This document shows, piece by piece, positions 558 through 28,959 of a stretch of DNA of 64,000 nt. Position 1 is the first letter of the stretch, and every line of letters begins with the position of its first letter. Source of the DNA: Carcharhinus longimanus. Its lineage: Eukaryota. Both the position numbers and the translations under genes were made by a program. A model generated the notes under the pieces. It searched no databases, was not told the origin of the DNA, and saw nothing but the letters and a program-made list of their open reading frames with translations. The stretch lies in assembly GCA_030264375.1 (NCBI GenBank), contig JASCQW010000177.1:15347243-15411242 (forward strand), in the 5' to 3' direction.

Positions 558-708
558 CAGGAAGGAACAGAGGAAAATGAAGGAGACAAAATAGAAATAG
601 GCAAACTCATTGCCACATTCGTTTCCTGCGATGCCAGATTTTGGATCACATGGTTTGCCACCCAAGCATGATAACATGATACTATGCCATGCCTCTCCTG
701 TTGCACTC
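558..708 (-). CDS. CACNA1A: CACNA1A exon ~35 (151 nt), domain IV pore loop and S6 start: (R)[50 protein letters not shown]
   Basis: Acceptor tatttcag at 709-716 and donor gtaagt at 552-557 (minus strand); contains the selectivity-filter TGEAW motif. Confidence 0.97.
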
Positions 709-1341
709 CTGAAATACACATACAATCTTGTTACAGTAACGGCAGTCAAGGAAGACAGATGAAAACTAATAGGAAATTCACACACTTCCTTTAATAATTC
801 ACCTGAAAGACATCAATTTGATAAAAGCCCCAGTATAGGTGATTCCCAATTCTGGGTAAAATATGAGGCTGCGTCCAGACTCATTGGGTCAGAGATACCT
901 CCTCAAATTGTGCACTGGTTTTGGATAACGTACTTAGTAACAGAAAAAAATCATCCTGTCTGAGTCCTTCTCTGTGATGGCTCAGTGGGCTTGCTGTCAT
1001 ACTGAGCTCTACAAATCAGAAAATATCAGTTTCAATCTCTGGCCTAGCCAGGGAAGAATCAAGGGGCATGGGAAAGAGTGGTGCCTTCATTCGCTAGGGA
1101 AACAAGGAACTGGATTTGCCAATATTCATGCTATTAATCATTACACAGTGATCGTTGCTGAAAAGTGCATGCGTCTCCATGGCAGGTGAGAATTGGAGTC
1201 AGCTGTGGTACCTTCTATACTTCGATAGCTTGCTGACAAACATTACTTAGGCTGCAGGGGAAGAAGTGCCTGGTATCTATGAAACCTTATTAAGAGATAT
1301 TAAAAGAAATTAAGAGGCAAATAAAGTTGATGGTTTTTTAC

Positions 1342-1439
1342 CGGAAAAGAAGTATCAGGGCTTGGAAGAATGTTCTGAAGTTGTTGTGGTGATTAATTTC
1401 ACTATCTTCATCATCATCAATTGCAATATTTCCAAATAC
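1342..1439 (-). CDS. CACNA1A: CACNA1A exon ~34 (98 nt): [32 protein letters not shown](R)
   Basis: Acceptor ttttgcag, donor gtaaaa; phase 0 to phase 2 joins exons 33 and 35; [10 protein letters not shown] motif. Confidence 0.95.
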
Positions 1440-1694
1440 CTGCAAAATAAAATGAGGCTATTTCAATTCCAAGTTCACTTTACTGTCCATACAGAAATTT
1501 ATTTCAGTGCATTACTCATTTATTAAAAATTGCATACAAGTGAATAACAATAAAAGAAAGAAAATCACGCAAAGACGTCTAACTTTAAATCAAATATCTA
1601 TTCAAAACTACATTAAAATGATCAGCCAACATTCCCATCCACACATCAAACTCCTAAGTTCTTACAGAGAAGAGCACATTGAATTCAGGTGGTA

Positions 1695-1883
1695 GGGTGG
1701 CACAGTGATTAGTAATGCTGCCTTACAGTGCCAGGGACCTGGGTTCGANNNNNNNNNNTTAATGTCAGGGGGACTAGCTAGGATAAATGTATAGGCTTAT
1801 GGGGGATAGGGCCTGGGTGGGAGTGTGGTCGGTGCAGACTCAATGGGCCAAATGGCCTCCTTCTGCACTGTAGGGATTCTATG
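1695..1883 (+). mobile_element. tRNA-derived shark SINE (HE1-like), interrupted by a gap
   Basis: A/B-box-like head (ggtggcacagtg...gggttcga) and CR1-like tail (gggccaaatggcctccttctgcactgtagggattctatga) shared with copies at 33993, 47730 and 57768. Confidence 0.8.
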
Positions 1884-2229
1884 AATTGATTTGTCCTGTA
1901 TCTGAGGGATTGTAGCCTTTCAACTGAACACAGCCATCAGTAATACTGAAAGAAGGGATGATTCTCATTGTTCATGACACCACTTTTATCAAGAAAAATC
2001 TGCTTATTAAATATCCTTCTTACCTGGTTCAATAATCTTTGTACCTTTAAAGTGTCTATTTTCAGAAGGCAACAGCATCAGAAAAATAGCACTCTCAAGA
2101 TCTACTTGAAATGTTTTTAATTTTCTGAATAGTATAATCATATATGTTCCTTGGCCATCACATCTGTATATTCTTCCCTCCAATTCAACTTATAATCTAC
2201 TTTGACATCTAGAAACTTGTATTAATAGC

Positions 2230-3080
2230 TATTTCAATGTCCACATCATGAATCTTCACAGGAACAATATCATTAGCTACTTTTTTTCTAAAATCTATAA
2301 CTAGTTTCATCCTGTTTTCGTTCAGAACATTTTACAACCCTCTCCATCAAATTCCTGGTTTCCTTCACTATTCCCTATGAGACCCACAAGTTCCGTATTC
2401 TCAGCATACTTTTGGATTGTTATGTACTTTGACTGACAATCATTCATATAGAGAATGAAAAATAAAGGTACACAACCCTGAGGAGATCCAGTGTTAGTTA
2501 ACATAGGCTTCCAGAAACTCTCTCCCGTTGTCATGTTGTGAAGTAAATCATTGTTTCAAAATATGAAGTAGGATTGATATCAATGTTTTTAAATTTTTCA
2601 ATAAGCTGGAATGGTTATGGAGTATTAAAACCTGAAGAGAAAACAACAAAGGTAGCAAAAGCATAGTTGCCTAATCTATCCCCTGGTATCAGATAGAGCA
2701 AGATCAGAATAGCATCAACCACTGACTTATGACGACATTGATAAGCAAACTGATCAATATGTGGAACAAGAGGATCAAAAGGACAACTTTTACTATGCGC
2801 TCAAAGCAATTCATGACTATTGATGTAAGAGCAACTGGTTGGTATTCTGAAATTGAGATATCCTGATTATTGTGTCTGCACAAGTACTCTGCTCACAGAG
2901 AGAAAAAGAAAAATATTTATAATGAAAACTTAGCAGCAAGGAACAGCTCCAGAACTTGTATGTTTTGTTGTAAAAGATTGCAACCTTTTTCTGCGTCTGC
3001 TGAATGCAAGTGAGATTGGAAGGGCATAGATTTTCCACTGAACTACATCTTTTCAGGACCACAACAGAACCTGTTAGAAT
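2230..3080 (-). mobile_element. Decayed non-LTR retrotransposon RT fragment (Rex1/Babar-like)
   Basis: Minus ORF NTGSPQGCVPLFFILYMNDC...QKYAENTELVGLI resembles the RT motifs G.PQG..LSP.LF.LY.ND and K(F/Y)ADDT; an upstream QFAY motif is present. Ends approximate. Confidence 0.7.
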
Positions 3081-3444
3081 TCCAAGTTTTTTAAATGGAT
3101 AAAGTTAACAATATGGCTGGCAAGGTTAAAAAGAACAGGGAAGAATCAGTTAAATTGGATGGCAAATTTGGGTTTTAAAAACCTGTAGATTATAGTTGGA
3201 AAGGAAGACTGAGTGAGGGATGAGAAAAGTTCTGGGAAATAATGAGTTAAAAGTTATAGTTATTTCTAATTAAAATCTTGATTTTAAAACAGTGAGAATG
3301 TAGAAAGAAGATTCTGTTGTATGCATGGAACCAGAATAACATATCAATGTCTGGCAAAATGGTGTCAATGTTTTTCAATAATCAAACATAAAAGTGTGTG
3401 TGTGTGAGTGTGTCATTCATAGGAGGAGAGAAGTTATCCCCTTT

Positions 3445-4160
3445 GAGTGAGCCGTTTGAGCCTGCTCCACCATTCATTATCTTGGCTGATCATTCAACTC
3501 AATAGCCTGATCCCACCTTCTCCCCATATCCTTTCACCCCCTTCATCCCAAGTGCTACATCTAACTCGTTCTTGAAAATATACAATGTTTTGGCTTCAAC
3601 AGATTTCTGTAGTAGCAAATTCCAGAAGATTACCACTTGCTGCATGAAGTAATTTCTCCTCATCTCAGTCCTAAAAGGTTTACCTCGTTTCCTTCAACTA
3701 TGGCCCCACATCATCAGGAACATCCTTCCTGCATCTACTCTGTCTAGCCGTGTTAGAATTTTATAGGTTTTTATGGGATTTCTGTATTTTGTTCTTGTCC
3801 TTGATTCCTCCTGCTTTGACTCCTTGCAGAGGTCCCCATCCCCCTGCTATTTTAGTTTAAATTCTCCTCAACCACTCAGCAAATACTTCCCAAGGACATC
3901 AGTCCTGGTCCTGCCCAAGTGTAACCCATCCAGTTTGTACTGGTCCCACCTCCCTCAGAATGGATGCCAATGTCCCAGGAATCTGAAACCCTCACACCAT
4001 CTATTCAGCCATATATTCATCCTATATATCCTGCTATTCCTGCTCTGACTAGCAAGTGGCACAGGAAGTATTCTTCAGATAACTACCTTTGAGGTCCTAC
4101 TTTTCAACTTACTTCCTAACTATATTCTGCTTTTAGGACTTCATCCTTTTTAACATGAGT
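3445..4160 (-). mobile_element. CR1-like LINE fragments (3' end plus ORF1 esterase-like piece)
   Basis: Reverse CR1 3' tail (cctgctccaccattcat...tggctgatc); minus-strand RWDQYKLDGLHLGRTRTDVLG resembles the DGLHL motif of the CR1 ORF1 SGNH esterase. Confidence 0.65.
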
Positions 4161-4271
4161 CATTTGTGCCAGGACCATAGGAACACAGCTAATATTATGC
4201 TTCAACTCCACTATGCTGCCTGATCCCCATGTTCCTCGATTCCCCATAAGACCAGAAAACTTGGGCATAGT

Positions 4272-4433
4272 CCATCCATGTAGACTAACCCATCCTTGTA
4301 ATCCAGCTCATTCATGTAGACTAGCCCGTCCCTATACTCCAGCCCATCTACATAAACGGGCCCATCCCCGCACTCCGGCTCAGGCCTGTAGATGAGCTCA
4401 TGCCTGAAATCTAGACAATCGCTGTAGTCTAAC
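4272..4433. repeat. Degenerate 18-bp minisatellite (~9 units, alternating 36-bp higher-order pattern)
   Basis: Units ccatccatgtagactaac / ccatccttgtaatccagc / tcattcatgtagactagc / ccgtccctatactccagc / ccatctacataaacgggc / ... Confidence 0.8.
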
Positions 4434-5269
4434 CCAAACCAAGTCTACCCCAGTAGTTGTGCAATGCTGCCTTTACCTTTTGGTAAAAGGAACTATACAA
4501 GTTTGATGTTCAGCTATATATCTACATTGAGCCACTAGATGGAAACAGCACACTGGAAACTACACCACAACCATGTCTACAAAACTAGGTAGGAGAGTTC
4601 ACTCTTCATTTCAATCACTGGAAATCACCAAAAATAGCTGCTCAACAGGGTCTGGGTATTGACACGATTTCTTTTGCCCCATTTTTATTTATTAAATCTT
4701 ATTTGCTAGCAGCTTACTCAAAGATATAAGGAGGTGTAACATCTCAGAAGGAAGTATTTAAAAAAAATGAAAATTGTTAATAGGTTATTCTAATTCTATC
4801 ACTGCATCATTTTCAACAAATCAATTATTTTTATTTCTAATGATATTGATTTATTGGAGTTACTTACTGATTGAGGTTACCTAATTAGGATCAGGTTTGT
4901 AACTGTGGGCTCTACCCACTGGAAACTGAAATGACACTCCCCCTGTCCCATTTCAAGTACAAGTTGTGCAGAACTTGTACCTGAAGCTACATTCAGTCTG
5001 GTGTGTCATTTCAGTCTGGTTTGGATTTTTCAATTGTTATATATGTATTATGATTTTTCAAATCAGCATGTTGAGACTTCCTGTTTGTTTTGCAATACTT
5101 CATTATCTTTCCTCACTAATCAGGTCCCTCTCTCTCCTCTGATTAGACTGCTTCAGTTGTCCAGCTAACTACCACCTTGGTGCATGTTGGCAACACTACA
5201 GCTTGTTTGATTCCAGATGTCCTGAACAGAGTTCGAAGACAGTTCTTAAATCAGTTTCCTCCCTTTCTC

Positions 5270-5620
5270 TCACATATCTGCATTGCTGAAAAAGAGAGAC
5301 ATGCTGCCAAAGCTTTTCGTCTTGCACTCATCAGGACAAATTCACAAGAATACCAAACTCAAAGGAAACAACAATTTATACTGCACAAGAAGAGGGTGCC
5401 GATTGTTTGGCAACTGAACTCTAATTGGTAGAGGAGTTGCCAAGGAAAATGAACCAGAGAACAGTTTGCTGGCAAGCTTTTGTTCAATTTCAAATCAGGC
5501 AGGTTGACCCTGATTGATCAAGACATTGCCATGGGGAGTGTTGTTTATCCCGATAGAAAAACATGTTACGTGAATGTCAGAGAGATTCAGTTTGGACTCT
5601 ATTCTCGTTGGTAAAGGCCC
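5270..5620 (-). mobile_element. Penelope-like element terminal fragment
   Basis: Contains a minimal hammerhead motif of the kind found in Penelope pLTRs; boundaries approximate. Confidence 0.5.
5305..5338 (-). ncRNA. Minimal (Penelope-type) hammerhead ribozyme motif
   Basis: Minus strand reads UGUC-CUGAUGA-GU gcaag AC-GAAA-AGCUU-U-GGCA: intact core, 4-bp stem I, 2-bp stem II, palindromic stem III. Confidence 0.55.
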
Positions 5621-5889
5621 TAGCACCTCTACATGTCATTCAATTAAGTTACTATAAATTAATTATAACAAGCAATCACCATCATGTGATCCATGTAATA
5701 CATTAATTAACATGAACCAATTAATCCCTGCTACATTGAATGGAATGTCTTTTTATTCATGAAAGTTTTAAACATAATCTAGAAATAAAATCTCGCATTC
5801 AACATTCTAAAAGAACATTCCGTTTATGATCTTGCCAAATTAACTTATATTAAATAGAAAGGAATGTTCAGGGCAATAGTTGTTCAAAA

Positions 5890-6200
5890 TGCCAGCTTGG
5901 TTTAATTGGTACACTCCTGCCACTGAGTCAGAAGTCCATGGGTTCAAGTCCTGAATTCAGGACTAGGCACATGATATCAGCTGACAGCCCAATGCATTAC
6001 TGAGGCAGTCAAAGAGCCATCCTCCAGATAGAAATGAAATGAAGGACATATCTACTTCCTATTACACTATTCAGAGAAGAGCAACTAAAGCCACCAAGAA
6101 ATGGGTGATCTCATCATTCATCTCATCTCCACTTGTATGCAAAATGGCAATCATTGGGTTTTTTATGTATATATGATGGATAGATTTTGTTAACCAAATG
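5890..6200 (+). mobile_element. Old tRNA-derived DeuSINE (SacSINE/AmnSINE-like) remnant
   Basis: Head ...gccactgagtcagaag...gggttcaagtcc and a Deu-like body; homologous to 58830-59450. Confidence 0.55.
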
Positions 6201-6214
6201 TATTTTTTCTTTAT

Positions 6215-6545
6215 CTTTTTCATAGGATGTTGGCACCATTGGCAATTGTTGCCTATTCCTAACTGCCTTTGAACCAAGGAGCTTGCTCAACCATTTCAGA
6301 GGGCAGTTAAGAGTCATCCATATTGCTGTGGGTCTGGAGTCACATGTAGGGTAGATTTTCCCTAATGGACATTACTGTACTAGATGGGTTTTTATGACAA
6401 TGACAGTTTCATTGTCACTATTATTGAGATTTGCTTTATATTAAATTCCACTAGCTGCTGTAGTGCAATTTGAACCCATGTCTACTGGCCATTAGCCTGG
6501 GCTGCCAGATTAATAGTCCAGTGGCATCACCAATACACCACTGTT
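6215..6545 (-). mobile_element. LF-SINE-like element
   Basis: Core ccatttcagagggcagttaagagtca...ttgctgtgggtctggagtcacatgtagg recurs at 19445, 20415, 28630, 34905 and 61805; tRNA-like head on the minus strand. Confidence 0.7.
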
Positions 6546-6996
6546 TCCCTTTAGGAATATGGGTCAAAAGCAGTTGCATCAGATCAGAACTCACTGAATG
6601 ACAGAACGGGCCATAGGGGCTAAAACAGCCTGCTCCTATATGGGTTTTAAGGTATTGTTTAAATTCTCTGTTCATGAATATAACATTACGTTTTTCTAAA
6701 TATCAAATTTTTGATCCAAAAAAGACATGCTCTTTTGGAGCTCCTAGTCTCTACGTCATAAGTTCACTGAAAGGGAGCAAATTGAAATGGCCTTACTGCT
6801 TGCAGCAAGACTGAACCTCCTACTGATTTTCACAGTCTGTGGAATATCTTCTTGCTGAGTTCCAGGGGTGAGAGGAGGACACCAATTTTAGTTTTATTTA
6901 AACTAGTGCATTGATGGTAACATTTTAGAAACAGATTTTCAAAGGTTTTGGACATTTTTCTTCTAGATTATGAATAGAAAAGAAATTCTGTCTCAC

Positions 6997-7062
6997 CTGC
7001 ATTCCGATAATCGCATAAATGAAGAACAGCATTGCGATCAGGAGACAGACGTAAGGCAATGC
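6997..7062 (-). CDS. CACNA1A: CACNA1A exon ~33 (66 nt): [22 protein letters not shown] (IV S5)
   Basis: Acceptor tttttcag, donor gtgaga; canonical Cav2 sequence. Confidence 0.97.
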
Positions 7063-7658
7063 CTGAAAAAAAGATTCAATTACCCATTCCACTTAATTCT
7101 CCAAGTGACTCAAAAAGCAAATATTATGTATCACACTATATGATATTTCAAGTTTTACAAACATGTTGATCAGGTTGTTTCCCTACTAGGAAAGCTGCTA
7201 GGTAAAATTAGATACCGAGATTCTGGTGCTAAGAATGGAACATCTTCAATCTTCGCCACATATTGCTGTAATTTTATTTTCCTCCATGTTTCTCAGATCA
7301 ATCAGCCTATAAAGCTAGTTAATAAGCTGATTGATAAGCTGTTCGTTATTGAGTGAGAAAGCCTGCAGCATGAAGGATGATGTTAGCACCAAGAATTTCT
7401 AAATAAGTGTTGTGTGATTAGACAGAGTAAAGCTCCCTCTACTCCAACACAACCTCCCAACACCAGCCATCCTAGCAGTTCTCTTAGGAACTTACATCTT
7501 GATGTATTTTTGTGTTGTGGGCATGTACCCAGTTATACTGAAACTGGCCAAACATGGAATTCTACATTTAAAGCAGAATTTCATTCTTTCAGCCTGTACC
7601 AAGTTTGAAGCTAGATCCCAAAGAGGAAAAAACAGTGTGTAATCTTCAGAAAAACCTA

Positions 7659-7844
<186 letters not shown>

Positions 7845-9597
7845 CTATAAAAGCGAGGTCAATGAACAAACAGGACAGTTAAACATTAATGTATTCTTGT
7901 CTCTGCTGGTTGCATTTGACAAGAATGGCACTTAAAGAAGACTCCCAAAAAACAAGTCTGGCCATCATCCAATCATGTAAAAGAATGGGTTTCCTTGTTA
8001 AAATATATATAGGTATACATGTATATATATATTTATAACACAACCAAATGCACTCTTCTTTGACACTAGTAAGCCATAAGGTGGAGTCTACTTGCAAGTA
8101 AAATGCACATGTGGGGTTTGCAAACATTCTGCTGAAATAAAACAATTCCTTTTAAAGTTATGATTTGTATCCGTAGATTCCAGGTGAGCATGCAAGGGCA
8201 CCAATTGCAAAAAGCAACAATGCAGTAGCAGTCCCTGATAAGAGCTGTGGCTCGATAAATTGCAGCTCTTTAAACACATGCAGCAAATATACATTTTTAG
8301 TAATGCATCAGCTTGAGTTTATCAGTGGTCTGATTCAACTATCAAATACCCTCAGAATGGCAAAGAAAAATTAAAGTTGAGCAGACTTATACATATTGAT
8401 ATGTATAAGAAGAAATCAAAATAAATCCTTTAACCTCACCCACTGGCTCTTCATTCATCTCATCTTCCTTTTTACTTGTTTCCATTTTGCTCTTGCCCTG
8501 CTTTAAAAACTTGTGCTTCTTGTTTCTTATATTGTTTCTTCATGGTGCTTGTTCCAAACCATATCCTTTGACACACAGTTAAGAAAGAAAGAGGCAGCAA
8601 GACTACACTACAAGGATTCTTGGGCAGATGGTTATGTTCAGCACATGGAGTGGTATGAACATTACAATTGCCTGGACACCAGGATTAAAGTGTAAAAGAC
8701 TGACACAGCAATCTTTTGGCAAGGACCATCCCACTCTTGGAACAGATTTTTATAAACACGAAAAAGTTTTTTATGCTAGACAGATGATAAATTCATTTAC
8801 TATGGGACCCTTATTATAGAAACTTTCACCATCATTATAGACTAGATTCAACTCGGGTTTTAAAAGGTGAAAGGACACTACTAATTCATCGCTCAATATT
8901 GTCCCATCCTAATGTATTTAATAATTTTGTTCAAATAAAGTATTCGTATTTTATTTAATTTGCTACTTTTTAAAATTTCAAATCGTCAATGGATCACACA
9001 TATATCATCAGAGTGTTAATCTCTTTCAATATATTGCTGTTTGTATGAAGGATTCTTAATAAGTCACCCACAGATGTTTCAAAATCTCCATCACCCATAT
9101 CAGGTAACAGAGGCAGCAGGTCAGTCATACACATGCATAAGTTTTAAATGCATCAGTGACCAAACACAAGGAAAGGGCCCAAAGCAGGGAGTGAGGTCCA
9201 CAGGCTTGGAGGAGAAACACGAACCAAAAGAATTTTTTTCTGGCTCTAAAGCTCTAAAAAGTAACCCATTTAAAAAGTGTATGTAAACAAGTGCGTTGCA
9301 ATTTCAGTACCTGTGGTAAAATCCCTTTCCCTTTAATATAATCTCATTGTTTTTGATAATCTAATTATTGAAGCGTGTAGGGAAGATGCTGTTAAGATTG
9401 AAAGATAGGTTTAAGTTGAATGGTGTATTTTATAAAGGAAGAGTCGACATTAGAGAGGTGATCATAATAGGCTGAGGGTTGAGAAGCTCCTTATAGATTG
9501 TGATAGTCCCTGAGCTACTACAACCTCCTCATTGAGTAAAACATTTAAAAAGGATGTCTACTGTAGGATATAACAATACATATTCTGGAGTGTAAAC

Positions 9598-9815
9598 AAA
9601 ATATGCTGAAAAATTCAGCAGGTCTGGCAACATCTGTGGAGAAAGAAACAGAGATAACATTTCAAATCCAATAGGATTTCTTCAGAACTGGGAGTACCAA
9701 AGTCATATTGGACTCAAAACATTAATTCTGTTTCTTTCTCTACAGAAGTTGCTGGATCTGCTGAGATTTTTTCCAGCATTTTCATTTCTATTTCATATCT
9801 CCAGCATCTGCAGTT
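9598..9815. mobile_element. Palindromic Penelope-derived short element (related copies at ~19015, 20980, 24050, 28315 and 30530)
   Basis: Inverted arms atgctgaaaaattcagcaggtctggcaacatctgtggagaaagaaacagag / ctgtttctttctctacagaagttgctggatctgctgagattttttccagcattt; other copies carry degenerate (C/T)TGAYGAAGGGTC...GAAAC cores. Confidence 0.6.
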
Positions 9816-10183
9816 TTTATCTACATATTTTGGAGCTTTGTTTTTATCTTTGAGGATAAAGAGAAATTTGCTAACCCTTCCTCTGCAGATTTAATTAACT
9901 GGTTAGGCTTCACCATGCAGCAGTTAGAACAGTGAAAGGTGGAGGTTTGTTCTGCTAAATTGACTTTACACCAGTACTAAATAAGTTATTAATAAAGCTT
10001 ATTGTTGAAGCTTTGGGAACAGAGCACTGAGGCAAGTGGTGGGTGGGAGCCACAACAAAATCCAAAGCCATGCCAAAAAACACAATCCAAGAAAGCGACA
10101 GCGATTCACAATTCAGCGCTGCATAGCATGCCAAGGGTACTTAGTTTGTGTATGCATTAGGCTCAAAAAAATTACAAACCAAC

Positions 10184-10189
10184 CGTGGT
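10184..10189 (-). CDS. CACNA1A: Candidate 6-nt alternative microexon e31a (ACC ACG = Thr-Thr) in the domain IV S3-S4 loop
   Basis: Minus strand ctacatatag|ACCACG|gttggt; phase 0-0 between exons 31 and 32; 240-nt AG-free upstream zone with a YCAY cluster; same position as mammalian Cav2.1 NP and Cav2.2 ET microexons. Confidence 0.8.
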
Positions 10190-10191
10190 CT

Positions 10192-10431
10192 ATATGTAGA
10201 TGTTGTTGATGGATGATTGTAATTGGATTGCATTGGGATTGGTTTGCAACCAGTTTTAAAATTAGTTGGCATGGACACACAGACGGATACATGGATGACA
10301 CATGAATTTCATAGTGCATTTTGATTGGATGAATTATTTCAGAAGGCGTTGTGCCAATAAAGCACAGATTAAAGACAGCATGTGAAAAGACAAAACAAGA
10401 AATACAGCAATCATTATTGGCAGTTCGTTTT
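10192..10431 (-). promoter_or_regulatory. AG-exclusion zone with Nova-type YCAY cluster upstream of the e31a candidate
   Basis: No CT on the plus strand (no AG on minus) from 10192 to 10431; about 8 YCAY motifs (e.g. ucauccauc, ucauccaug); two GCAUG motifs downstream of the microexon (plus catgc at 10069 and 10127). Confidence 0.65.
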
Positions 10432-11664
10432 CTTTTATCGGCAATGATCTATATCAAAATACAATAGCAACAGACTGGTTCAGACAGTAATAGTGCACAC
10501 TGGCTGCAGATTTTGGTNNNNNNNNNNNNNNNNNNNNNNNNNNNNNNNNNNNNNNNNNNNNNNNNNNNNNNNNNNNNNNNNNNNNNNNNNNNNNNNNNNN
10601 NNNNNNNNNNNNNNNNNAGTGCACACTGGCTGCAGATTTTGGTCAGGAAATAACAATTAACACACATGTGTATACATATACACACATTATTAGTCTGCAG
10701 TTTGTTTTTAATTTGCCCTCTGGATATTTGGCACTATTTTTCTCACAATGTTTGTACAGTGATTATATAAAAAGCACCCATTAGCAGAGATTTTTCTCAT
10801 TTTCTTAATTCTGCTACTAATTTAGATAAAAATAACTGGAAAGGTCACACCATACCCAATTGGAAAATTGTCTGACTTCCAGGTTGAAAAAATAGTGCCC
10901 AAAAATAACCATCAGGTGGTGAGAGAGCACCAGTACCATTCAAAGGTAAGTGTTAGTACAGTTGATTTGTTTCAGAAGGCCTGCATATTGTTAAGTCTCT
11001 GTCAGTACACATATCGCTTATATACATTTAGGTTAGGTAAAAAAACTGGTTACAGCAAACTTAATTCCTCACTTTCTAGTTTCTGCGCAATGCCCAAGTG
11101 GTTGGACCAATCTGTTACTATATAACAATGATCAGGTGTCTCGCAAAATATCCATTCCATTTCTCACTTTTACATAGCCTTTCCAAAAGGCTGCTAATAA
11201 TTGAACAGGTGGTTGGCAAACTCCTTATTTGCATTTATAAACGCACAATACAAACATTGTAGGGGTACTTAAACACAATATTATAATGAAGATAAGGCAT
11301 GGTCCTTCGCTCTCCCAAATACTTTTCCAGTAAGGCATTGTCTCTTTGAAATGTTTAAGTCTTTCATCCTTTAATTGTCAAAGTGCTTATAACACATAAG
11401 AAAATGAGAACATCTATGTGTTTTGATCCATAACACTATGTACTATTTTCTATTTCTGCCATTCTTCTTTGCTAAACAGGAGTGGACAAGTTTACTTCTT
11501 GTTATAGAATATACCATTGCACAAAGTTTCATATCATATTTTAACAACATTTCACCCAGAAGAAGTAAAATATGGGAAATTTGTAATTTCTTTAAAATGT
11601 CAGCAGAATCTGTAATTGCTTTAAAGAATGTTTGAACTTGCATCAATTGTAAAGGGGTTAATTA

Positions 11665-12890
11665 GCAAGTATTAGTGAGAGACAACATGGTTTTGTGAGG
11701 GGAAGGTCATGTCTTACTAACTTGATCGAGTTTTTCGAAAAAGTGATGAAGATGATTGATGAGCAGAGGGCAGTGGACGTTGTCTACATGGACTTCAGTA
11801 AGTTCTTTGACAAGGTCCCTCACGGCAGACTGGTACAGAAATTGAAGTCGCACGGAATCAGAGGTGAGCTAGCAAGATGGACACAGAACTGGCTCGATCA
11901 TAGAAGACAGAGGGTTGTGACAAGTGGCGTTCTTCAGGGATCAGTGCTGTTTGTGACATATAAAAATGATTTGTAGAAAAATGTAACTGGTTTGATTAGT
12001 AAGTTTGCAGACGACACAAAGTTTGGTGGAATTGCAGATAGTGAAGAGGACCATGGGAGGATACAGCAAAATATAGATCGGTTGGAGACTTCGGCGGAGA
12101 GATGGCAGACAAAGTTTAATCCAGACAAATGTGAGGTAATGCATTTTGGAAGGTCTAATACAGATGGGAAATATACAGTAAATGGCAAAACCTTTAAGAG
12201 TATTGAGAGGCAGAGGGATCTGGGTGCACACGTACAGAGGTCACTGAAAGTGGCAACGCAGTGGAGAAGGTAGTGAAGAAGGCATACGATGAAGGCTTGC
12301 GTTCATCGGCTGGGCATCGTTTAAAAATTGGCAACAAATTGGCAGTTTTATAAAACCTTGGTTAGGCCACACTATTTCTCAATTCTGATCATTGCACTAC
12401 CACAATAATGTGGAGATTTTGGAGAGGGTACAGAAAAAATTTACCAGGATGTTGCCTGTATAGAGGACATTAGCTTTGAGGAGAGATTGGAAAAACTTGG
12501 TTTGTTCTCACTAGATTGATGGAGGTTGAGGGGTGACCTGAAGTTTACAAGATTATGAGGAGCATGGACAGAGTGGATAGTCAGAAGCTCTTGCCCAGGG
12601 TGAAAGAGTCAATTACTAGGGGGCATAGGTTTAAGGTCCAAGGATCAAGTTTTAAAGGCAAGTTTTTCTTACAGAGGATGGTGGGTGCCTGAAACTCGTT
12701 GCTGGGGAGGTAGTGGAAACAAATGCAATTATGACTTTTAAGGGGTGTCTGGACAAAAATATGAATAGGACAGCCATGGAGGGATGTGGTCCCCAGAAGG
12801 GTTGGGGGTTTTAGTTCAGACAGGCAGCGTGGTCGGTGCAGGCTTGGAGGGCCGAAGGGCTTGTTCCTGGGCTGTAATTTTCTTTCTAAT
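11665..12890 (+). mobile_element. CR1-clade LINE, 5'-truncated RT and 3' end, decayed
   Basis: RSCLTNLIEFFE...VDVVYMDFSKFFDKVPHGRL, KFADDTK, FNPDKCEVMHFG; stops and frameshifts. Confidence 0.92.
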
Positions 12891-13319
12891 TGTACTTTTC
12901 TTGGATAATGGGACATACTAGTCTATGTGACCTAGCAACCTTTAACCTGGAAGCAGTACCAACAGAAAAGAAGTTAAGATCTGCTTGCCAGGTGGACAGA
13001 CACAAAGGAAAGATGCAGGCATAAAGGGTGACTGCAAGCATAGGAGCTGCAGGATGAAGGTGATCAGTGCACAGATGTAGACACAAAGAGAAAGCAGATA
13101 AAGACAGAAGTAGAAACTCAGATATCCTGCGAGAAGAAACAAATCTTTCTCCAGAAGAGTTCACTTTTTCTGTTTGGCAGAGAAGGAAGCAGGAGCATTT
13201 GGAGGGATTGTTGGGGCAGGCTTGATGGGCTGAATGGCCTCCTTCTATACTGTAGGAATTCTGGCTAGAATGATGTAAAACCTGGAAAGTTGTGTGAATA
13301 ACTCAGAGACACTGCTGGG

Positions 13320-14312
13320 TGCTTTCCGAGAAGTGGCCAAAACATCTTGCCAGAGCCATCCCCACACCCCCACTTCTTGCCTTCAAACAACCGCACAACC
13401 TCAAACAGACCATTGTTCACAGCAAACTACTCAGCTTTAAGGCGAACAGTGACCACAACACCACACAACCATGCCACAGCAACCTCTGCAAGACATGCCG
13501 GATCATCAACATTGATNNNNNNNNNNNNNNNNNNNNNNNNNNNNNNNNNNNNNNNNNNNNNNNNNNNNNNNNNNNNNNNNNNNNNNNNNNNNNNNNNNNN
13601 NNNNNNNNNNNNNNNNNNNNNNNNNNNNNNNNNNNNNNNNNNNNNNNNNNNNNNNNNNNNNNNNNNNNNNNNNNNNNNNNNNNNNNNNNNNNNNNNNNNN
13701 NNNNNNNNNNNNNNNNNNNNNNNNNNNNNNNNNNNNNNNNNNNNNNNNNNNNNNNNNNNNNNNNNNNNNNNNNNNNNNNNNNNNNNNNNNNNNNNNNNNN
13801 NNNNNNNNNNNNNNNNNNNNNNNNNNNNNNNNNNNNNNNNNNNNNNNNNNNNNNNNNNNNNNNNNNNNNNNNNNNNNNNNNNNNNNNNNNNNNNNNNNNN
13901 NNNNNNNNNNNNNNNNNNNNNNNNNNNNNNNNNNNNNNNNNNNNNNNNNNNNNNNNNNNNNNNNNNNNNNNNNNNNNNNNNNNNNNNNNNNNNNNNNNNN
14001 NNNNNNNNNNNNNNNNNNNNNNNNNNNNNNNNNNNNNNNNNNNNNNNNNNNNNNNNNNNNNNNNNNNNNNNNNNNNNNNNNNNNNNNNNNNNNNNNNNNN
14101 NNNNNNNNNNNNNNNNNNNNNNNNNNNNTCTGTAAACTGTGTGTGTCTTTATATGCCTTTCTCTGATCAGAACCTTGCACACACCTGACAAAGGAACACC
14201 GTTTCTGAAAGCTTGTGGGATTACTATCAAATAAACTGGTTGGACTTAAACCTGGTGTTGTGAGAATTCTTACTGTGTTTACCCCAGTTTAAGGCTGGCA
14301 TCTCTACATCAT
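13320..14312 (+). mobile_element. Penelope-like element 3' part (pre-GIY-YIG Cys motif, gap, pLTR)
   Basis: LAFKQPHNLKQTIVHSKL...PCHSNLCKTCRII resembles the Cys-rich linker before the GIY-YIG endonuclease. After the gap there is a pLTR-like end with a degenerate hammerhead (cac-ctgacaa...gaaagcttgtg) shared with 37555-37650 and 61355-61587. Confidence 0.8.
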
Positions 14313-16269
14313 GCTAATTCAATCCAGGGCTGGGAGAGGAAGGTGCTGTCCTAATCATCTGGGTGCCTGCCTTCGGGGGCACAGGCTTGGGCAGCACTGC
14401 ACCCTTTCTCAAGGGGTGACCTGCTTGCTGGATGTGTACCCAATCAAGTGGGTAGCGGTTCCAGCGTTTGAAATCTGATCGTCCTGGAGCGAGCATTCAA
14501 GTCTGAGTGGCCATTTGCTTTGATAGGTGCATTCTGGTTGGTGTAGTCCTCTCTTGACCCTCCTCTTGCCCTCCCACATAGGTGCCAGCCCATTAAAGAG
14601 CTACAGGAATCAAGGAGGAGAAGCTAGGAGGAGCAGCAACAGTGAAGTCCAGGACAGCTGAATTATTAGACAGGGCTCTGAGGAAGAATATGAGGATGGA
14701 ACATTCTTTATGGGCTAAATGGCCTTTTTTGCTCTGATTTCTTAAATTTATTTTTTCTTATGATTCATAATTTAACAATTATTTAAATCTTGTTTATGGC
14801 TGATGCAGAATAAACATGACCTCTAAGCTATGGAACGTGAGAAATTACTTAGTACAAATTTGTGATATAGTTTGGGAGTATGAGGAAAAGTAAAACATTA
14901 AGAAGGGTAGTCTGTATTCTGTACCATTTTGAATGAACTCCTTTTGGCTGATGTTGATTCACAACGCCTAGTTTCAGATGAAGACATTTTGCAGCCACTT
15001 TAATTGGGATCAATTTTAACAGCAAGTGTGCAAAAACAGGCAGGTGCGAAAGAGGGTAGTTGGGAAAATAACACACAATAATTCCTACCAGTTGAAGATT
15101 GGATGGTTGTGGGCATAGGAAGTCCTTACTTAGTGTCGTTAATTGGTTCTGGAAAATGCAACATTCTGAGGCTCAAAAATACCTTCTCAGATTGCTTGCT
15201 CCCCACCTTACCTGAGACCCAGCTGTTGCAGGTTCAACAGGGGAGAATTAATGCAAAACAGCAGCAATGCAATGCAAAAGAAGAGTTCTAATTGGAGAGT
15301 GGCATTAAAGCAAAAAATTGTACAGAATGACATTATAATGTGGAGAAATGTTCTCAAAGGTTCCTGCAGAAGGGACGAGGAGCTTTTCTGGGCAATAAAG
15401 GCTTTGAATTTCTTTGTGGGAACTGAAGAAGCATTCCTTCTCTCCAGGTCCAGGATGCTATGGTAGTTCCTTTCTCAAGCTCCAGTTGAAATGCTGTCAG
15501 GACACATTGACATCAAATGATCCTGTTTATCATTTATGCAGGAGGACCACACTCAAGTCCAACAAATGTATCATCTACTGCCAAGACCAGCAAGATCAGA
15601 ACAAGAGATACAGCCATCCCATTTTAATTGATAATCACCCACTAGCCCCTCCCACAGTAATTCTGTGAACAGTAAATGTTGAGTCTCACAACTAGAGATT
15701 GAAAATAGTGTTAATTAGCACAAACAAATTATGAGTAGAAATAATTTATGAAATAGATCAGAAATAAATGTTGCAATATCCTAAATTAAGATTTTTGATA
15801 GATTGAGGCACTACATTAGTGAATCATCAGAGGCATACGATGCTGATGTAATAATGATGTAAAACAAAATGATTCAGTAACAGATCTGGAGGGAGCAGTA
15901 GTTCCAACCTCGTCCCAATAAGCATATAGTGGCTGAGAATAAAGAGCAATGGTTTTAATGAACTACATTCTCAAGGAGCTTACTTTGGGAGGTCCTCACA
16001 TGACGAAACAATCCCTATCCTGCTTAATTTGCTTGGTAGCATATTGCCTCCAGTTTAAGATTCCTGTCGTCATATTAAGCTCACTTCATGGACTCTATCT
16101 ATTTCTGCAAGTTCCTCTATCCCTATGTCTTCATACTAAATCCTGTTATTCTCACTTTGATTGCTCATTTATTCCCTGATGTCCGTTTCCCTATCCCTTT
16201 GGTTATCATGCCTTCAACTGCCTGGATTCCACAACTTTTCTCTGTAAAATATAGAACTGATCTCAGGGA

Positions 16270-16714
16270 GCTATCTAATTCATCCCTCTCCTCTGGTCTT
16301 TCCCTATAGCCTTGTAAGTTGCTCCTTTTCAAATATATATTTAATTCTCTTTTGATTGCTATAAATTGAATCTACTCCCTTTGTACAGCAACTTCATGTT
16401 ATAACAACACGTAAAAAACACCTCCTTCTGTTCTTTTTGCCAACTATGTTAACTCTCTGCTTTCTGGTTTCTGAATCCCTTGCCAGTGCATACCGTTTCT
16501 CTTTAATTATTCCATCTAAACCATAATTTTAACATCTGTATGAAGTTACACATTAACCTTCTCTGCTCAAAGAAGAAGAATCCCAACTCTTCAGTCTATC
16601 TACATAATTGAAATCCCTCATCACTGGTACCATTCTAGCAAATCTCCTTCTGCACCCTGTCCAAGCACTTGACATCCTTGCTACAGTGCGATGCTCAGAT
16701 TTGTCTACAATCTG
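16270..16714 (-). mobile_element. Decayed CR1 3' fragment
   Basis: Reverse CR1 motifs (aaccttctctgctcaaaga..., ctggtaccattctagcaaatctccttctgcacc); resumes after 17228. Confidence 0.55.
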
Positions 16715-17228
16715 TCTACACTTCCCGCTGCCTCGGCAAAGCAGCCAGCATAATTAAAGACCGCACGCAACCAGACATTCTCTCTTCCATCTTCTTCTGC
16801 CAGGAAAAAGATACAAAAGTCTGAGGTCACATACAAATTGGCTCAAGAACAGCTTCCTCCCTGTTGCTGTCAGACTTTTGAATGGACTTACCTCGTATTA
16901 AGTTGATCGTTCTCTATACCCTAGCTATGACTGTAACACTACATTCTGCATTCTCTCATTTCCTTCTCTATGAACGGTAAGTTTTGTCTGTATAGTGTAA
17001 AAGAAACAATACTTTTCACTGTATGNNNNNNNNNNNNNNNNNNNNNNNNNNNNNNNNNNNNNNNNNNNNNNNNNNNNNNNNNNNNNNNNNNNNNNNNNNN
17101 NNNNNNNNNNNNNNNNNNNNNNNNNTTCCTTCTCTATGAACGGTAAGTTTTGTCTGTATAGTGTACAAGAAACAATACTTTTCACTGTATGTTAATACAT
17201 GTGACAATAATAAATCAAATCAAATCAG
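16715..17228 (+). mobile_element. 3' end of a Rex1/L2-like LINE nested in CR1
   Basis: gccagcataattaaagac...aagaacagcttc...cagacttttgaatgg followed by an aataataaatcaaatcaaatca microsatellite tail. Confidence 0.6.
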
Positions 17229-17415
17229 ATTTGGACACAATACTCAAGCTTAATCTATGATAAATAAGGGTTTAACGTGGCCTCCTTGCTTTTCCTATTT
17301 CTTCATCATGTGTTATTAAATTGTGAATCTCACTCAGAAACAGAAATAGAGTTATGTAGGAAATGGTGTTGTCATGGTTGCTTTTCATTGCATAAGATTT
17401 TTAATGTATACTTAC

Positions 17416-17499
17416 CCAGAATTCCGTCACTAATATATCAGTGACACTGCCCAGGACTGTGACAAAATCAAATATATTCCAAGCATCCTGAAAATAGTT
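17416..17499 (-). CDS. CACNA1A: CACNA1A exon ~31 (84 nt): [28 protein letters not shown] (IV S3)
   Basis: Acceptor ctttgcag, donor gtaagt; [12 protein letters not shown] motif. Confidence 0.97.
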
Positions 17500-18207
17500 C
17501 TGCAAAGCAAAAGATAACACCGTTAGAAATGCTGAATTTTGAAGCAATTTTCTCCCTCGTCCCCTGAATGTGCTGGCTCACCCTGAACTATGGACCTCAC
17601 TAGTTCACCTGTATCTCCCATTGTACTTATTTATGTATCATTTCAGGCAGAGTGTGCTGAGAAATTATTGGGACTATAAGGCACCATAACAAAGCTTGGT
17701 TCTGTCCTCAACCTGATATCCATAAGCACACTTTTCAGCATGAACCATTTGACACTGATCAGGACTGAGAGTCTTGGATATTTTCCCTCCCTTTTCTTGG
17801 GCCAGAGTTGCTACAGCCAAATGCAGCAGAAGCAAGTGCTACCTTAGGTCTGATCAAATGATTCAGAGGATCTTGGAAGGAATGCTACAGTTGATTTCAA
17901 TGTTCCTTCGCTTGGAAGGGAAAAAAAAACAATTGGTTTTGCCATTCACATTCACTGTCCAGTATTGTCAGCTGAAAAATGCATGCGTGTAAATGTTGGT
18001 AAGGATGTGTCCAGTGTCCAGGTAATGCCCCCTTAGTTGAAAGGTCCCCAACACTTATGTCTACTCACATATCAAGAATAGCCACTTAGTTCAGCAAAGG
18101 ATCAGTTTCAGCATCTGTAGAACTATATCCTGCAAGAATCAATGTTTTCAGGAGGAGAGGAAGGGGGAGAAAATTTAGAGAATAGAAAATTCATTCCATG
18201 TACTCAC

Positions 18208-18318
18208 CAGAATTCCAAAGGCAATAATTTTCAGGATACATTCACATGAGAACAAAATGGTGAACACCATATTGAGATACTTTAGAACGTCATCGTAAGA
18301 CTGTGGCTGACCAGAAAA
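18208..18318 (-). CDS. CACNA1A: CACNA1A exon ~30 (111 nt): FSGQPQSYDDVLKYLNMVFTILFSCECILKIIAFGIL (IV S2)
   Basis: Acceptor tggtttag, donor gtgagt; E-C-x-L-K motif of S2; phase 0-0. Confidence 0.95.
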
Positions 18319-19444
18319 CTAAACCAAGAAAAAGAGAATTTAGTTACTAACGCTACATGTCTATTATATGGGTGATGGAGGCAGGAGGGAAAGATCATTA
18401 AAGCTTGTTAATTAACACGTTGGTACAAGTGAGGTTATTTATCATGGTGTCACTGGAGAATCAAAACCGCTGATTTTTGCAGTCACCATAGAGTTTACAG
18501 CATATATATACAGACTATTAACCCATTATGTCAGTGCTCATTCTTCACTAAAACAATCTAAAATGAGTCCCTGTGCTTTCCCCAAAGTCCTGTACATTTT
18601 TCTAATTCAAATATCTATCCATGCTTCCCTTCAAAGTGTGATGTTTACTGTTCAAACTGCTTCTTGTAGTAAAACATTTTATGTAAAAGAAATTCTCCAC
18701 AAAATATAAATTATCCTGACCTCACTCTCATTAAACTTGAAACTTTCTGATTCTGCACCAACAGAAATAGCTTGCTGTACTGAACTGTTCAACATTCCTC
18801 ACAGTTTTAAAACCCCCATTAAATTTCCTTTTAGCATTCTTTTCTTCAGTGGAAACAAGGAATTGATTGGTGACTGGGAGAATTCTCTACATAAAGGCAT
18901 CACTGTTGAAATAGCCCCATTAAATGTCATCAACTGTAATCTGTCACATCATTTGTAAAACTTGCGCTGCCTCAGTAAACATTACCTTTGGTAGCCAGTT
19001 GTCTATTGCTGTGGAATAAAAACAGAAAATACTGGAAAACTCAGCACGCCAGGCAGCAACTGTCAAGAGGCTTCGTTAGGAAGTGGGAGGTGCAGGGGAA
19101 TCCCAGCATTCTGCTAAGTGAGATGGTCAAAATCAAGAATTGGGGAGAGAATAGGGAAAGGAATCCTTGGGGTGGGGGATCAATGGCTTTGGGGGGGGAT
19201 GTCTTGGAGAATGACTGGCCTTGGATGGAGGAGTTGAGGCCTCATAGGGAGAGTCAAGTTTGGGTGGAGGAAGGGTGCCTAATTGCAGGCAGGCACGCTA
19301 GATCCAGTAGGTAAATAAAGAGGAAGTCACCTTCAAAGTCTGGCAGCGCTTCCTGAGATTACCTGCCAGGTTTCCCAAGGTTCAGGAAACACAAACACCC
19401 ACAGTAAAATTTCCAATGGGGCTCTACTATAATGGGGCCAACAT

Positions 19445-19745
19445 TAATTACCAATTCCTAATTGCCCTTGATGAGGTGATGGTGAATGGCCTTCTTGAAC
19501 CGCTGCAGTCAGACTTTCTAACGATTTGCTAGGCCATTCCAGGGCAGCAGTTAAGAATGAACCATATTATTGTGGATTTGGAGTTACGCGTAGGTTGGAC
19601 CAGGTAAGGACAACAGATTTCTTTCCCTAAAGGACACTGATGAAGCACACAGGTGTTTCTGACAATTGACAATGGCTTCAGGATCACTATTAGTGAGACT
19701 AGTTTTTAATTCCAGAATTGAATTAATTGAATTTAAATTCAGCAC
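19445..19745 (-). mobile_element. LF-SINE-like copy
   Basis: Homologous to 6215-6545 and 34905-35262. Confidence 0.6.
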
Positions 19746-20589
19746 CTCGTTTTGATCAAACACATATAGTTTGCAATGCCTCCCACCTGCTACTTCATGC
19801 TGATCTATTCAGCCCACCCAAGGTGTGACTTCCATCAAAAAGGCTGATCTGGAAAAACCAACCCACACAATGCAATTTCCACCTAGGCAAATGACACAAC
19901 GAACAAGTATCTGGTCTCAAACCTAACCCAGCAGCTGTTTCTGGTTTCAACCTTCCAAGCTAAAAGTGCTCTACCCTCAATAGGTTCAGGACCAGCCACA
20001 CCTGATTGTCCAACCGCCACAGATGGGGCATTAGTGCCACCCCTTATGCGTCTGTGGGAGAGAGCAAACTACACATGACATCATAGAAGTGTGTCCAATC
20101 CACAGACTCAGCAGAGGCCTATCTGCACTCAACATAGTAGGACCAGAAAAAAAACTGCTTGGCTTATGGACTTTGCAATTGCTAAATAAATAAAATAAAT
20201 TAGCCTGGATTACTAGTCCAATGACATTACACCATCTCCTCAGACAAAATACATTGATATAGCTGATAAAGAAATACATGAATAGGGTATTTATGAAGTT
20301 GAATAGGGTCATGTTAAATTTAAATTTAAATGTTAAATTTAAGCCAGTCTTTAGTTGTTCACAGGAAGCATACAATGTCAACAAATCTAGCATTTATCAC
20401 CCATTCCAATGCAACTCAGTGGCTTATTAGGCCATTCCCTAGGGAAGTTAAGAGTCAATCACATTTGCCACGAATTAACCAGACCTGCAAGGATGGCAAA
20501 TTTCCTTCCCTAAAAGATATTAGTGAACAGATGGGTTTTTACAGCAATTAGTAATAGCTTTTTTTCCAGACTTATTTCATTAATATTAA

Positions 20590-20850
20590 AGAGGAGTCAC
20601 AGGTAAACAAGATGGTGAAGAACGCATTCAGCATGCGTGGTTTCATCGGTGAGAACACTGAATACAGGAGTTGGGACGGCTTGTTGAAGTTATACAAGAC
20701 ATTGGTAAGGCCACAATTGGAATACTGTGTACAGTATTCCACTCAATTATAGAAAGGATATTATTAGAAAAAGTGCAAAGAAGATTTACTTGGATGCTAC
20801 TGGGACTTGATGGTTTGAGTTATTAGGAAAGGCTGGATAAACTGGGATAC
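20590..20850 (+). mobile_element. CR1 RT C-terminal fragment
   Basis: LYKTLVRPQLEYCVQ-like reading (ttatacaagacattggtaaggccacaattggaatactgtgtacag). Confidence 0.75.
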
Positions 20851-21186
20851 ATGAACAACAGATTGAATCAATGACAAACCCCACAGAGGTGACATTCTTC
20901 TCCTACCTCCCACCTATCCCTGACCTATTTTTTTCCAACCCCTCTTAAACACTATAAAATCCATCACACCTCTCCCTCTCATATGGGCTCAAACTGTTAA
21001 CTCTGTTTATCTTTCCACAGACACTGTCAGATCTTCTGGGTTTTTCCAGAATTTTCTGTTTTTATTCCTTTGGTATTGATAGTCACCTGGAAGCGTGTGT
21101 CAATAAGATAATGAGAGGCAGTGGTGCCAGAACGCAAACAGCAAAAATTTGAAGCAAAAGGCAGAAAACCAAAGAATGGAAATTTA

Positions 21187-21360
<174 letters not shown>

Positions 21361-21819
21361 CTACAAAAGATAAAATAATAGGTCAGTTCAGCAGAAACAA
21401 CCTCATAACATTGTATAACATATATATTCCTTCCGATACAAGGAAGTGCTGAGCCCTTTCCTAAGCAACATCATTAAGCTAAATACTTGCTTTGCCCATC
21501 CCAGTTAACACTGTGCTCCCCACGAAGAAGTCTACCAATTTACTGCCATTTTCACATTCCATCTACACTGATCATGATCGTGATTCAGACTACCCTAAAT
21601 TCAATGCAGCAGGAACCTACAACCAACTGCTTTTTAATCTCTCCATCTGAACTGGATTCAATAAATTTCTGAGCTCTGAGGCATCGTAACTAGGAGGGTA
21701 CCCCAAAGATGCAGTGGGGCCCACTTCTTGTGGGTGCCCACATAATCAGTGCACAGCAATTGCTTGGAAAGTTCAACCTCATGTTGGGCAATGTTTTTGC
21801 AAGTGGAACCATCCTAAAG

Positions 21820-22650
21820 GAAGATATAAATCAGAAACTTCAGATGCTTCTCATTTTATTATGGTAATTGTTCCCCAGAAAAAGTCAGAAATAATTAGAA
21901 CCACTTCTAGATTCTGCGTAACAATAGTACTGACATTCCACTCTACCACAAGTGATTCCTCCCACCTCCCTGACACCCCAAGGTACATCCCTAACTCACC
22001 CTCCACCACCACCTGATTAATCCCTCCTGCCCCTAGCCCGCACAGATCTCCCCCCACACTGCTGACCAGCCCCCACAAGACCCCTGTACCACTCATGAAC
22101 CCACCCTCCTCCCCATCCCATGTGATTCCATGCCAATGAAACATCCTAACTATGACCCCCGCTCCCTACTGACCCCCAATCCTTTCCTACATCCCCCCAN
22201 NNNNNNNNNNNNNNNNNNNNNNNNNNNNNNNNNNNNNNNNNAAGACTGCCCTCTCCTCCCCCAACTACCCTATCTACATTGCTCAACGCACCCCCCCTAC
22301 TCCCTCACCCCCCACAACTACCCAGCCCCCACCTCCTGGTCCATGTCCCCTCTGACAAAACCCACCCCAATCCGACCACCTGAAGTCCAATCCTATGCAT
22401 TTACATAACAAACATGCCTTCTCTCTGGCTTCTCAAAGCGGCTGGACCTTTAAACATACCTACTTTATAGCAGTTGTGCCATAACAATGGGGCATTTCTT
22501 CTTTATCTGACTCAGGTTCCCTCAATACAAGCCCTCAGGAACCTCCTGAATTATACCTGCCCAGCCTGAGTTGGAAGATTGGGTGAGCGGTTTCATTTCT
22601 GGGTAATTAGGTAAAAATGGAGTGACAATCCAACTCTGATTATTCCTCCA
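21820..22650 (+). repeat. Unclassified interspersed element with C-rich core; a diverged inverted relative lies at 27120-27650
   Basis: ccccagaaaaagtcagaaataattagaaccacttctagattctgcgtaacaatagtactgac aligns with the reverse complement of ~27455-27515. Confidence 0.5.
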
Positions 22651-26366: not shown

Positions 26367-26563
26367 CCTTTCACTGTGACCCAACACCATAATCAGAAGC
26401 TGCACTGCTCCACATTTCCCTTTGAGATTCCTCCCAGGCTGTATCTATCATAGCGTCCACCTTATGAACTACAACATTTGTAATTCAACACTAATTATTT
26501 TTAGCCTACATGTAATTAATTCCTGACCATACATTAGTTTGACTTCCAAAGAGTACATTGCTA

Positions 26564-27016
<453 letters not shown>

Positions 27017-27839: not shown

Positions 27840-27980
27840 TCTGGCCATCCTTCTCCAGTTGACACAGTGAAGAGAGTCAGCAGAGCCCATAGTACATTAT
27901 CATAATGAAACTCATATCGTTTCCACTCCCGCTTCTGTGCCTTAATATCACTTTCCCTCATGTAGACCAAGTATTGTCCT
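27840..27980 (-). CDS. CACNA1A: CACNA1A exon ~27 (141 nt): (R)[46 protein letters not shown] (III pore loop)
   Basis: Acceptor tgtttcag, donor gtatgt; TGEGW selectivity filter. Confidence 0.97.
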
Positions 27981-28629: not shown

Positions 28630-28950
28630 TCCTTAAGTGTCCTTGAGAAGGCGGTGGTGGTGAGCTACCTTCCTGAATATTACTGAATGGCTAACTGTGC
28701 CATTTCAGAGGGCATTGAGAGTCAAACACAGCGTGAAAAATCTGGCGTCACATTTATGCCAGATCAGTAAGGACAAGAGGTTTCCCTCCTGAAAGAATAT
28801 TAGTGAAACATATATTTTTTTTACAACAATCAGGTAGATTTGTGGTTACTATTACTGATTCTAACTTTTTATTCCAGATTTATTTAATTAATTGGATTTA
28901 AGTTCCTCAGTTGCCATTGTAGAATTTGAACTCAAGTCTCTGGATCATGG
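28630..28950 (-). mobile_element. LF-SINE-like copy
   Basis: Homologous to 6215-6545. Confidence 0.6.
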
Positions 28951-28959
28951 TTCTAGGGT

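Follow-up and report, generated by a model that had tools for sequence, protein, structure and literature searches.

The stretch analysed, hereafter the window, comprises 64,000 nucleotides of contig JASCQW010000177.1 from Carcharhinus longimanus and carries on its minus strand part of a gene for the calcium channel Cav2.1. Thirteen constitutive exons were placed, and splice sites were determined for 9 of them. Within this gene lie two candidate microexons, one at the position of e31a and one at that of e24a. The features are listed below in the direction of transcription.

558..60803, minus strand: partial Cav2.1 (CACNA1A) gene, covering domain III S2 through the pore region of domain IV in 13 constitutive exons (tblastn exon map)
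36253..36264, minus strand: candidate 12-nt e24a microexon, GAGCCTTATGGG, phase 2, encoding SLMG in the IIIS3-S4 linker, donor GTAATA
17416..17499, minus strand: upstream constitutive exon, IVS3, ending VTEFW, phase-0 donor GTAAGT
10192..10431, minus strand: 240-nt AG-exclusion zone, U-rich in its distal half, A/C-rich and G-poor in its proximal 60 nt
10261..10266, minus strand: branch-point-like ACTAAT (A at -73), function putative
10184..10189, minus strand: candidate e31a microexon ACCACG (Thr-Thr), between AG (10191-10190) and GTTGGT, called from sequence and peptide match
10069..10131, minus strand: two weak Rbfox-like GCATG motifs (motif scan)
7728..7844, minus strand: constitutive exon 32 on the downstream side, coding for the last part of the IVS3-S4 linker and for the IVS4 voltage sensor, starting KNIINLSF

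Comparison bears out that the gene is Cav2.1: the exon at 26786-26585 is identical to human Cav2.1 (8x90) at 65 of 67 positions and to Cav2.2 (7mix) at 61 of 67, and in a tree of 31 rows and 475 columns the window protein falls inside an 11-row Cav2.1 group with support of 98/93. Judged by its sequence the host gene is Cav2.1 (CACNA1A); identity as Cav2.2 or as a fourth paralogue is ruled out by the same tree. Placement within the Cav2.1 group is weak (86/78), and identity is highest with bowfin, at 91-92%. Exon by exon, identity ranged from 17/37 to full, with 3 of the 13 exons marginally nearer a Cav2.2 set; no block pointing to gene conversion was found in these 13 sets of identities. The most divergent exons were those of the extracellular loops, at 27842-27979 and 18208-18318, whose best identities among the fetched proteins were 39/46 and 26/37.

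Several repeats were noted in the window. LINE-like fragments at 11670-12860 and 52198-53468 are related to each other (71% identical), the first lying within the e31a intron, and a 240-nt direct repeat (56900-57139 and 58982-59221, 97% identical) flanks the IIIS3 exon. Copies near 47750-48030 and 57770-58065 are probably of a SINE that, together with the lack of close protein relatives, points to a cartilaginous fish, a placement on which the dating argument below depends. Sequence is duplicated across the 100-N gaps at 10492-10643, 16960-17191, and 37377-37630, a usual sign of contig overlaps left unmerged, and the real intron is perhaps shorter than assembled.

The candidate e31a sits in a phase-0 intron of 9571 nt, 812 of them N, which runs from the IVS3 exon (exon 31 by mammalian numbering) to the IVS4 exon. 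The unit reported at first pass, ACCACG at 10184-10189 between AG and GTTGGT, is present on the minus strand and in frame at the e31a junction. Host gene, IVS3-S4 linker intron, and six in-frame bases bounded by AG and GT are all as expected of e31a; the encoded TT is the dipeptide of two Cav2.2 models (P0347 and P0433) and is not NP-like. At the donor, 6 of 9 positions agree with the consensus; it departs from it at +3/+4 and has the exonic G and +5G/+6T. Two constitutive exons of the same gene have donors that are equally weak. On the acceptor side, pyrimidines make up 60% of the last 25 nt, and the last 60 nt are 42% A and 5% G. A proximal pyrimidine tract is absent, the best pyrimidine runs lying near -220. 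The constitutive linker itself reads EFW (17416-17424) followed by KNII (7833-7844); Trp at the EFW position recurs in the Cav2.1 rows of frog and of many teleosts, and the KNII start was found in none of the 517 proteins fetched.

The unit had further been said to be preceded by 240 nt free of AG. This count is exact, and the stretch is the longest N-free, AG-free run on either strand, the runners-up measuring 139 nt (minus) and 164 nt (plus). None of 600 dinucleotide shuffles reached 240 nt: shuffling 7845-10517 (500 rounds) gave 193 nt at most, and shuffling the whole strand (100 rounds) 187 nt. For the nine constitutive exons the AG-free zones were 16-56 nt. AG-free stretches of at least 100 nt numbered 18; after 7 of them an in-frame GT follows within 27 nt, and after a single one, that before ACCACG, this GT stands at six bases. 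No tandem repeat was called within 6900-18400, and no second copy of the zone was matched elsewhere in the window.

Six bases between AG and GT are commonplace in themselves, following 245 of the 4062 minus-strand AGs (~6%). Within the e31a intron 34 such units are stop-free, and ACCACG stands well ahead of the rest; the other 33 were rejected, having AG-free zones of at most 90 nt against 240 nt and encoding unrelated peptides. Across the minus strand, 214 units are stop-free, and TT is encoded by one, the ACCACG unit itself. Eight of the 214 encode one of ten reference dipeptides, from a reference list set after the data had been seen. Only one other unit of the intron does so, that at 16142-16137 (minus strand), which encodes DL as in coelacanth Cav2.2; it was set aside for its poor splice signals, its AG-free zone being 6 nt long and its acceptor rich in purines.

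For comparison of the peptides at this junction, 517 proteins were fetched, of which 462 fit the junction pattern and 55 were dropped for lack of a match. The reference dipeptides come mostly from automatic gene models, some of them probably artefacts (VST), and isoforms of the same species are not independent; the search queries carried no dipeptide, which biases the insert tallies towards skipped forms. Among 219 Cav2.1 rows, 8 carried an insert: NP in one (colugo), DP in one (gecko), NL in two (carp and wolf-eel), and M in four (teleosts). A ninth row was left out, being a Cav2.3 protein misassigned by motif. The single-residue M, seen in P0021, P0028, P0083, and P0110, suggests from the sequences a 3-nt form of the microexon. 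In 201 Cav2.2-type rows the inserts were ET (6), DT (11), TT (2), and AK, AS, DL, and DQ (1 each). Eight rows with VST went unused, as these look like artefacts of donor read-through.

TT at the e31a site belongs to the Cav2.2 models of paddlefish (P0347) and Sinocyclocheilus (P0433) and is absent in the latter's relative Labeo (P0430). The first-pass annotation had called TT a different dipeptide, which is right with respect to mammalian NP and ET; it is not new, TT being already present in these two Cav2.2 models. Its occurrence in ray-finned fish makes the exon call stronger and the novelty lower.

Among cartilaginous fishes, none of 13 Cav2.2 models had an insert at this site. No cartilaginous-fish Cav2.1 protein was among the 517 fetched, nor among the matches listed in three protein searches (the best 120 of 834, 1777, and 1130; the first limited to 82-2000 residues, the other two queried with frog and hagfish regions), nor among the members listed in two look-ups of 10 clusters each, with at most 15 members per cluster. 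This failure to find one is no evidence of absence.

Taking these observations together, we consider it likely, with good confidence, that ACCACG is the e31a orthologue, a candidate cassette microexon of the Cav2.1 gene. In the mechanism we propose, a distal branch point would be used, probably the ACTAAT at -73, from which the spliceosome would scan to the first AG; excerpts of bioRxiv 2024.09.17.613571 describe, for microexons in general, a branch point and a pyrimidine tract placed at some distance from the AG. The six bases would then be joined in frame as an optional inclusion, adding Thr-Thr to the extracellular S3-S4 linker directly before the domain IV voltage sensor. Because there is no proximal pyrimidine tract and the donor is off consensus at +3/+4, inclusion is expected to be optional and regulated. 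In rat Cav2.2, e31a (ET) is reported to slow activation and the movement of gating charge (0.28 versus 0.14 ms; PMC2311404, in part), and by analogy inclusion of the shark candidate would be expected to slow voltage-sensor movement and activation. TT would fit the Cav2.2-type series ET/DT/TT, as an ancestral xT exon kept in the Cav2.1 gene.

The unit could instead have arisen by chance, the AG-free stretch being a G-poor, CAAY-rich low-complexity patch or some other element, the GT a coincidence, and the true e31a lost or hidden in a gap. The ~6% frequency of six-base units, the repeated CAAY and 5% G of the last 60 nt, and the 812 intron nucleotides of N, which leave room for another candidate, are all compatible with this reading. 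It would require, against that, that the longest AG-free stretch in 128 kb of strand fall in this very intron, end at six bases, and encode a dipeptide of the sister gene, and neither the tandem-repeat call nor the search for a second copy of the zone gave it any support; we regard it as improbable. Less probable still is a vestigial exon, at the true orthologous position and no longer included at a meaningful level. The weak donor, the missing pyrimidine tract, a nearest UGC as far off as -43, and the 0 of 13 cartilaginous-fish Cav2.2 models with an insert would fit such a relic; an AG-free zone of 240 nt would, however, be expected to decay without selection, donors of the same weakness serve two constitutive exons of the gene, and mammalian e31a is itself described as seldom included in brain and as absent from reference tracks (PMC5008151, excerpt). 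Least probable by a small step is a poison exon, in which a real acceptor would be paired with one of three further GTs within 50 nt (+10, +14, and +49, all out of frame, that at +14 reading GTAATT) and the frameshift would lower channel mRNA by decay, since the +6 donor, with its exonic G and +5G/+6T, leaves the reading frame intact and yields a peptide found in relatives.

On the reading of ACCACG as a genuine e31a, its regulation was considered from the motifs around it, for which a Nova/Rbfox architecture had been proposed at first pass. The motif counts were right, with eight YCAY in the 240-nt zone (among them one tight trio and a pair at -27/-23) and two GCAUG downstream; what they were taken to mean holds less well, as YCAY is not above shuffled sequence and both GCAUG lack the 5' U. 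Eight YCAY compare with a dinucleotide-shuffle mean of 8.7, at least eight being reached in 73% of 5000 shuffles and in 8% of 240-nt windows. YCAT occurs 7 times in the last 150 nt, a density reached by 0.09% of windows in what was one of 12 pattern/length combinations taken post hoc. The GCATG copies lie at 10131-10127 (+53) and 10073-10069 (+111), both as GGCATG; two or more were found in 6.6% of shuffles, and no TGCATG occurs within 200 nt downstream of the candidate. The strongest motif enrichment found was that of CAAY, with 7 copies in the last 60 nt (10190-10250, minus strand; 0.04% of windows), in a run that occupies the usual place of the pyrimidine tract before the acceptor. UGC occurs at -43, -59, and -82 from the acceptor and no nearer, so the near-AG UGC associated with SRRM3/4 is not found here. 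ACTAAT at 10261-10266 also fits the QKI motif ACUAAY.

According to the portions available of PMC12149502, PMC5633781, and PMC3849787, Nova2 promotes skipping of e31a in both Cav2.1 and Cav2.2; PMC12149502 is inconsistent on the point, its table marking the Nova effect on exon 31 as '+' and its text describing skipping. The likeliest regulator of the shark candidate would be Nova, acting on YCAY between branch point and AG to cause skipping in central neurons, with inclusion higher in peripheral neurons, the pattern that e31a of mammals is reported to follow. Given a real exon, Nova repression is plausible by homology, and we lean slightly towards it. A role for Rbfox is unlikely: no report of Rbfox regulation of e31a was found in the literature examined, much of it in excerpt, and the Rbfox2 work on Cav2.2 described in part in PMC5633781 concerns e18a.

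Inclusion might instead be set mainly by factors other than Nova, which is compatible with a real exon: the distal UGCs could serve SRRM3/4, the ACTAAT could be bound by QKI, or the CAAY run by a CA-binding repressor. The unenriched YCAY total, the enriched CAAY, the UGCs at -43, -59, and -82, and an SRRM4 response that has no strict need for UGC (bioRxiv 2024.09.17.613571, partial text) speak for this possibility. The tight trio and the AG-adjacent pair do, on the other hand, have the YCAY cluster spacing of Jelen 2007, as excerpted in PMC2014790 (17 such trios occur on the strand), and Nova regulation is reported, in the partly available sources above, for both mammalian paralogues. We hold control without Nova to be a serious but somewhat less favoured option.

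In mammals the NP insert alters sensitivity to omega-agatoxin IVA, distinguishing P from Q type. This effect, cited at first pass, need not apply to the present candidate: the insert is TT and not the NP of the P/Q switch, and zebrafish Cav2.1 is said not to be highly toxin-sensitive (PMC7939481, excerpt), on which ground P/Q pharmacology is not to be assumed for a TT exon. The toxin binds near the domain IV S3-S4 loop, according to the part of PMC12737659 available.

A second candidate microexon was found in the 25-kb intron between IIIS3 and IIIS4 (flanking exons ending at 57515 and starting at 32447), where e24a would be expected. The 12-nt unit has a pyrimidine-rich acceptor, UGC at -11, and a 57-nt AG-free zone. 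By likeness of its peptide, SLMG, it tops the 79 twelve-base units of its intron (15 versus 8) and leads the 404 of the whole window (16 versus 14), 4 of which reach 3/4 identity. An alternative at 47244 (SETY, with a strong donor) ranked below it. At the e24a site, bony-vertebrate Cav2.1 has peptides of SSTR type, and Cav2.2 has SFMG, SFVG, SFIG, or SVMG, with SFLG in stingray Cav2.2. Five ray-finned-fish Cav2.2 models (P0347, P0168, P0365, P0420, and P0500) carry SFMG followed by seven more residues in the IIIS3-S4 linker, which fits an extra zebrafish exon mentioned in the accessible text of PMC2014790.

Both candidates of this Cav2.1 gene are thus Cav2.2-like in sequence, which suggests, as the simplest reading, that ancestral exons have been retained. 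Local gene conversion or convergence may also be the source of the Cav2.2-like peptides. As to age, the e31a switch had been dated at first pass to the jawed-vertebrate ancestor at least, which is perhaps too young. Two hagfish models, P0503 and P0112, are identical across 448 aligned residues save for a PK insert at the e31a junction; they are named differently and may be isoforms or two loci. If they are isoforms, the switch perhaps predates jawed vertebrates. Beyond the vertebrates, partly available text of PMC10657410 gives Aplysia as without an e31a orthologue and Drosophila as having an alternative exon at that place. Combined with ancestral retention, a broader scheme can be offered tentatively, at somewhat less than even confidence: the Cav2.1 gene would keep the pre-duplication S3-S4 microexons (SxMG in domain III and xT in domain IV), SSTR, NP, and the mammalian P/Q switch would be later bony-vertebrate rewrites on an unchanged splicing scaffold, and hagfish PK would make the e31a switch older than the divergence of jawed from jawless vertebrates. 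If confirmed, the Cav2.2-like state of both candidates would show when the NP and SSTR versions arose.

The e31a event is very probably one already known from mammals, of which a predicted orthologue is described here in another vertebrate. No report of cartilaginous-fish Cav2.1 e31a was found among the titles and abstract openings listed for a mainly open-access literature. Microexon databases and supplements that cover elephant shark may already list the event. A classic example of how two residues can tune a presynaptic calcium channel, e31a gains in range from a predicted orthologue in a deep-branching vertebrate, which also fills an exon in the gene model; by itself this advance is modest, since excerpts of PMC5008151 already credit all vertebrates with Cav2.2 e31a. 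The portions available of PMC7018710 and PMC4502356 hold nothing further on e31a. The inserts TT, ET, DT, NP, DP, NL, M, and PK form a natural series in which linker length can be set against side chain as a determinant of gating.

Compared with mammalian Cav2.1 e31a (NP, Cacna1a), the shark candidate has in common the gene, the phase-0 IVS3-S4 junction, the length of 6 nt, and upstream YCAY. It differs in encoding TT instead of NP, DP, or NL and in its flanks, EFW and KNII versus EFG and NNFI; Nova control and the toxin effect are features of the mammalian exon, and splicing of the shark candidate is predicted from its sequence. SRRM3/4-dependent neural microexons resemble it in being tiny and in frame, with a distal branch point and pyrimidine tract and a long AG-exclusion zone; in contrast, the candidate is without UGC near the AG, and mammalian e31a is skipped, not included, in brain.

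The second candidate shares with Cav2 e24a (SSTR in Cav2.1; SFMG, SFVG, and SFLG in Cav2.2), of which the human Cav2.1 form has been characterised (PMC11580629, in part), the matching intron, 12 nt, phase 2, UGC at -11, and a good pyrimidine tract. It differs in having three scattered YCAY within 200 nt downstream and no cluster, and in encoding SLMG, a Cav2.2-like peptide, in a Cav2.1 gene. Finally, Cav2.2 e31a is known as ET in mammals, DT in amphibians and reptiles, and TT in paddlefish and a cyprinid model. The shark candidate is set apart from it by its place in the paralogous Cav2.1 (98/93 in the tree), with the insert in 0 of the 13 cartilaginous-fish Cav2.2 models. The two share the junction, the length, and Thr as second residue, and their introns are of similar size, 9.6 kb here and 10-12 kb in mouse Cacna1b, whose e31a is likewise 6 nt (PMC5008151, excerpt).
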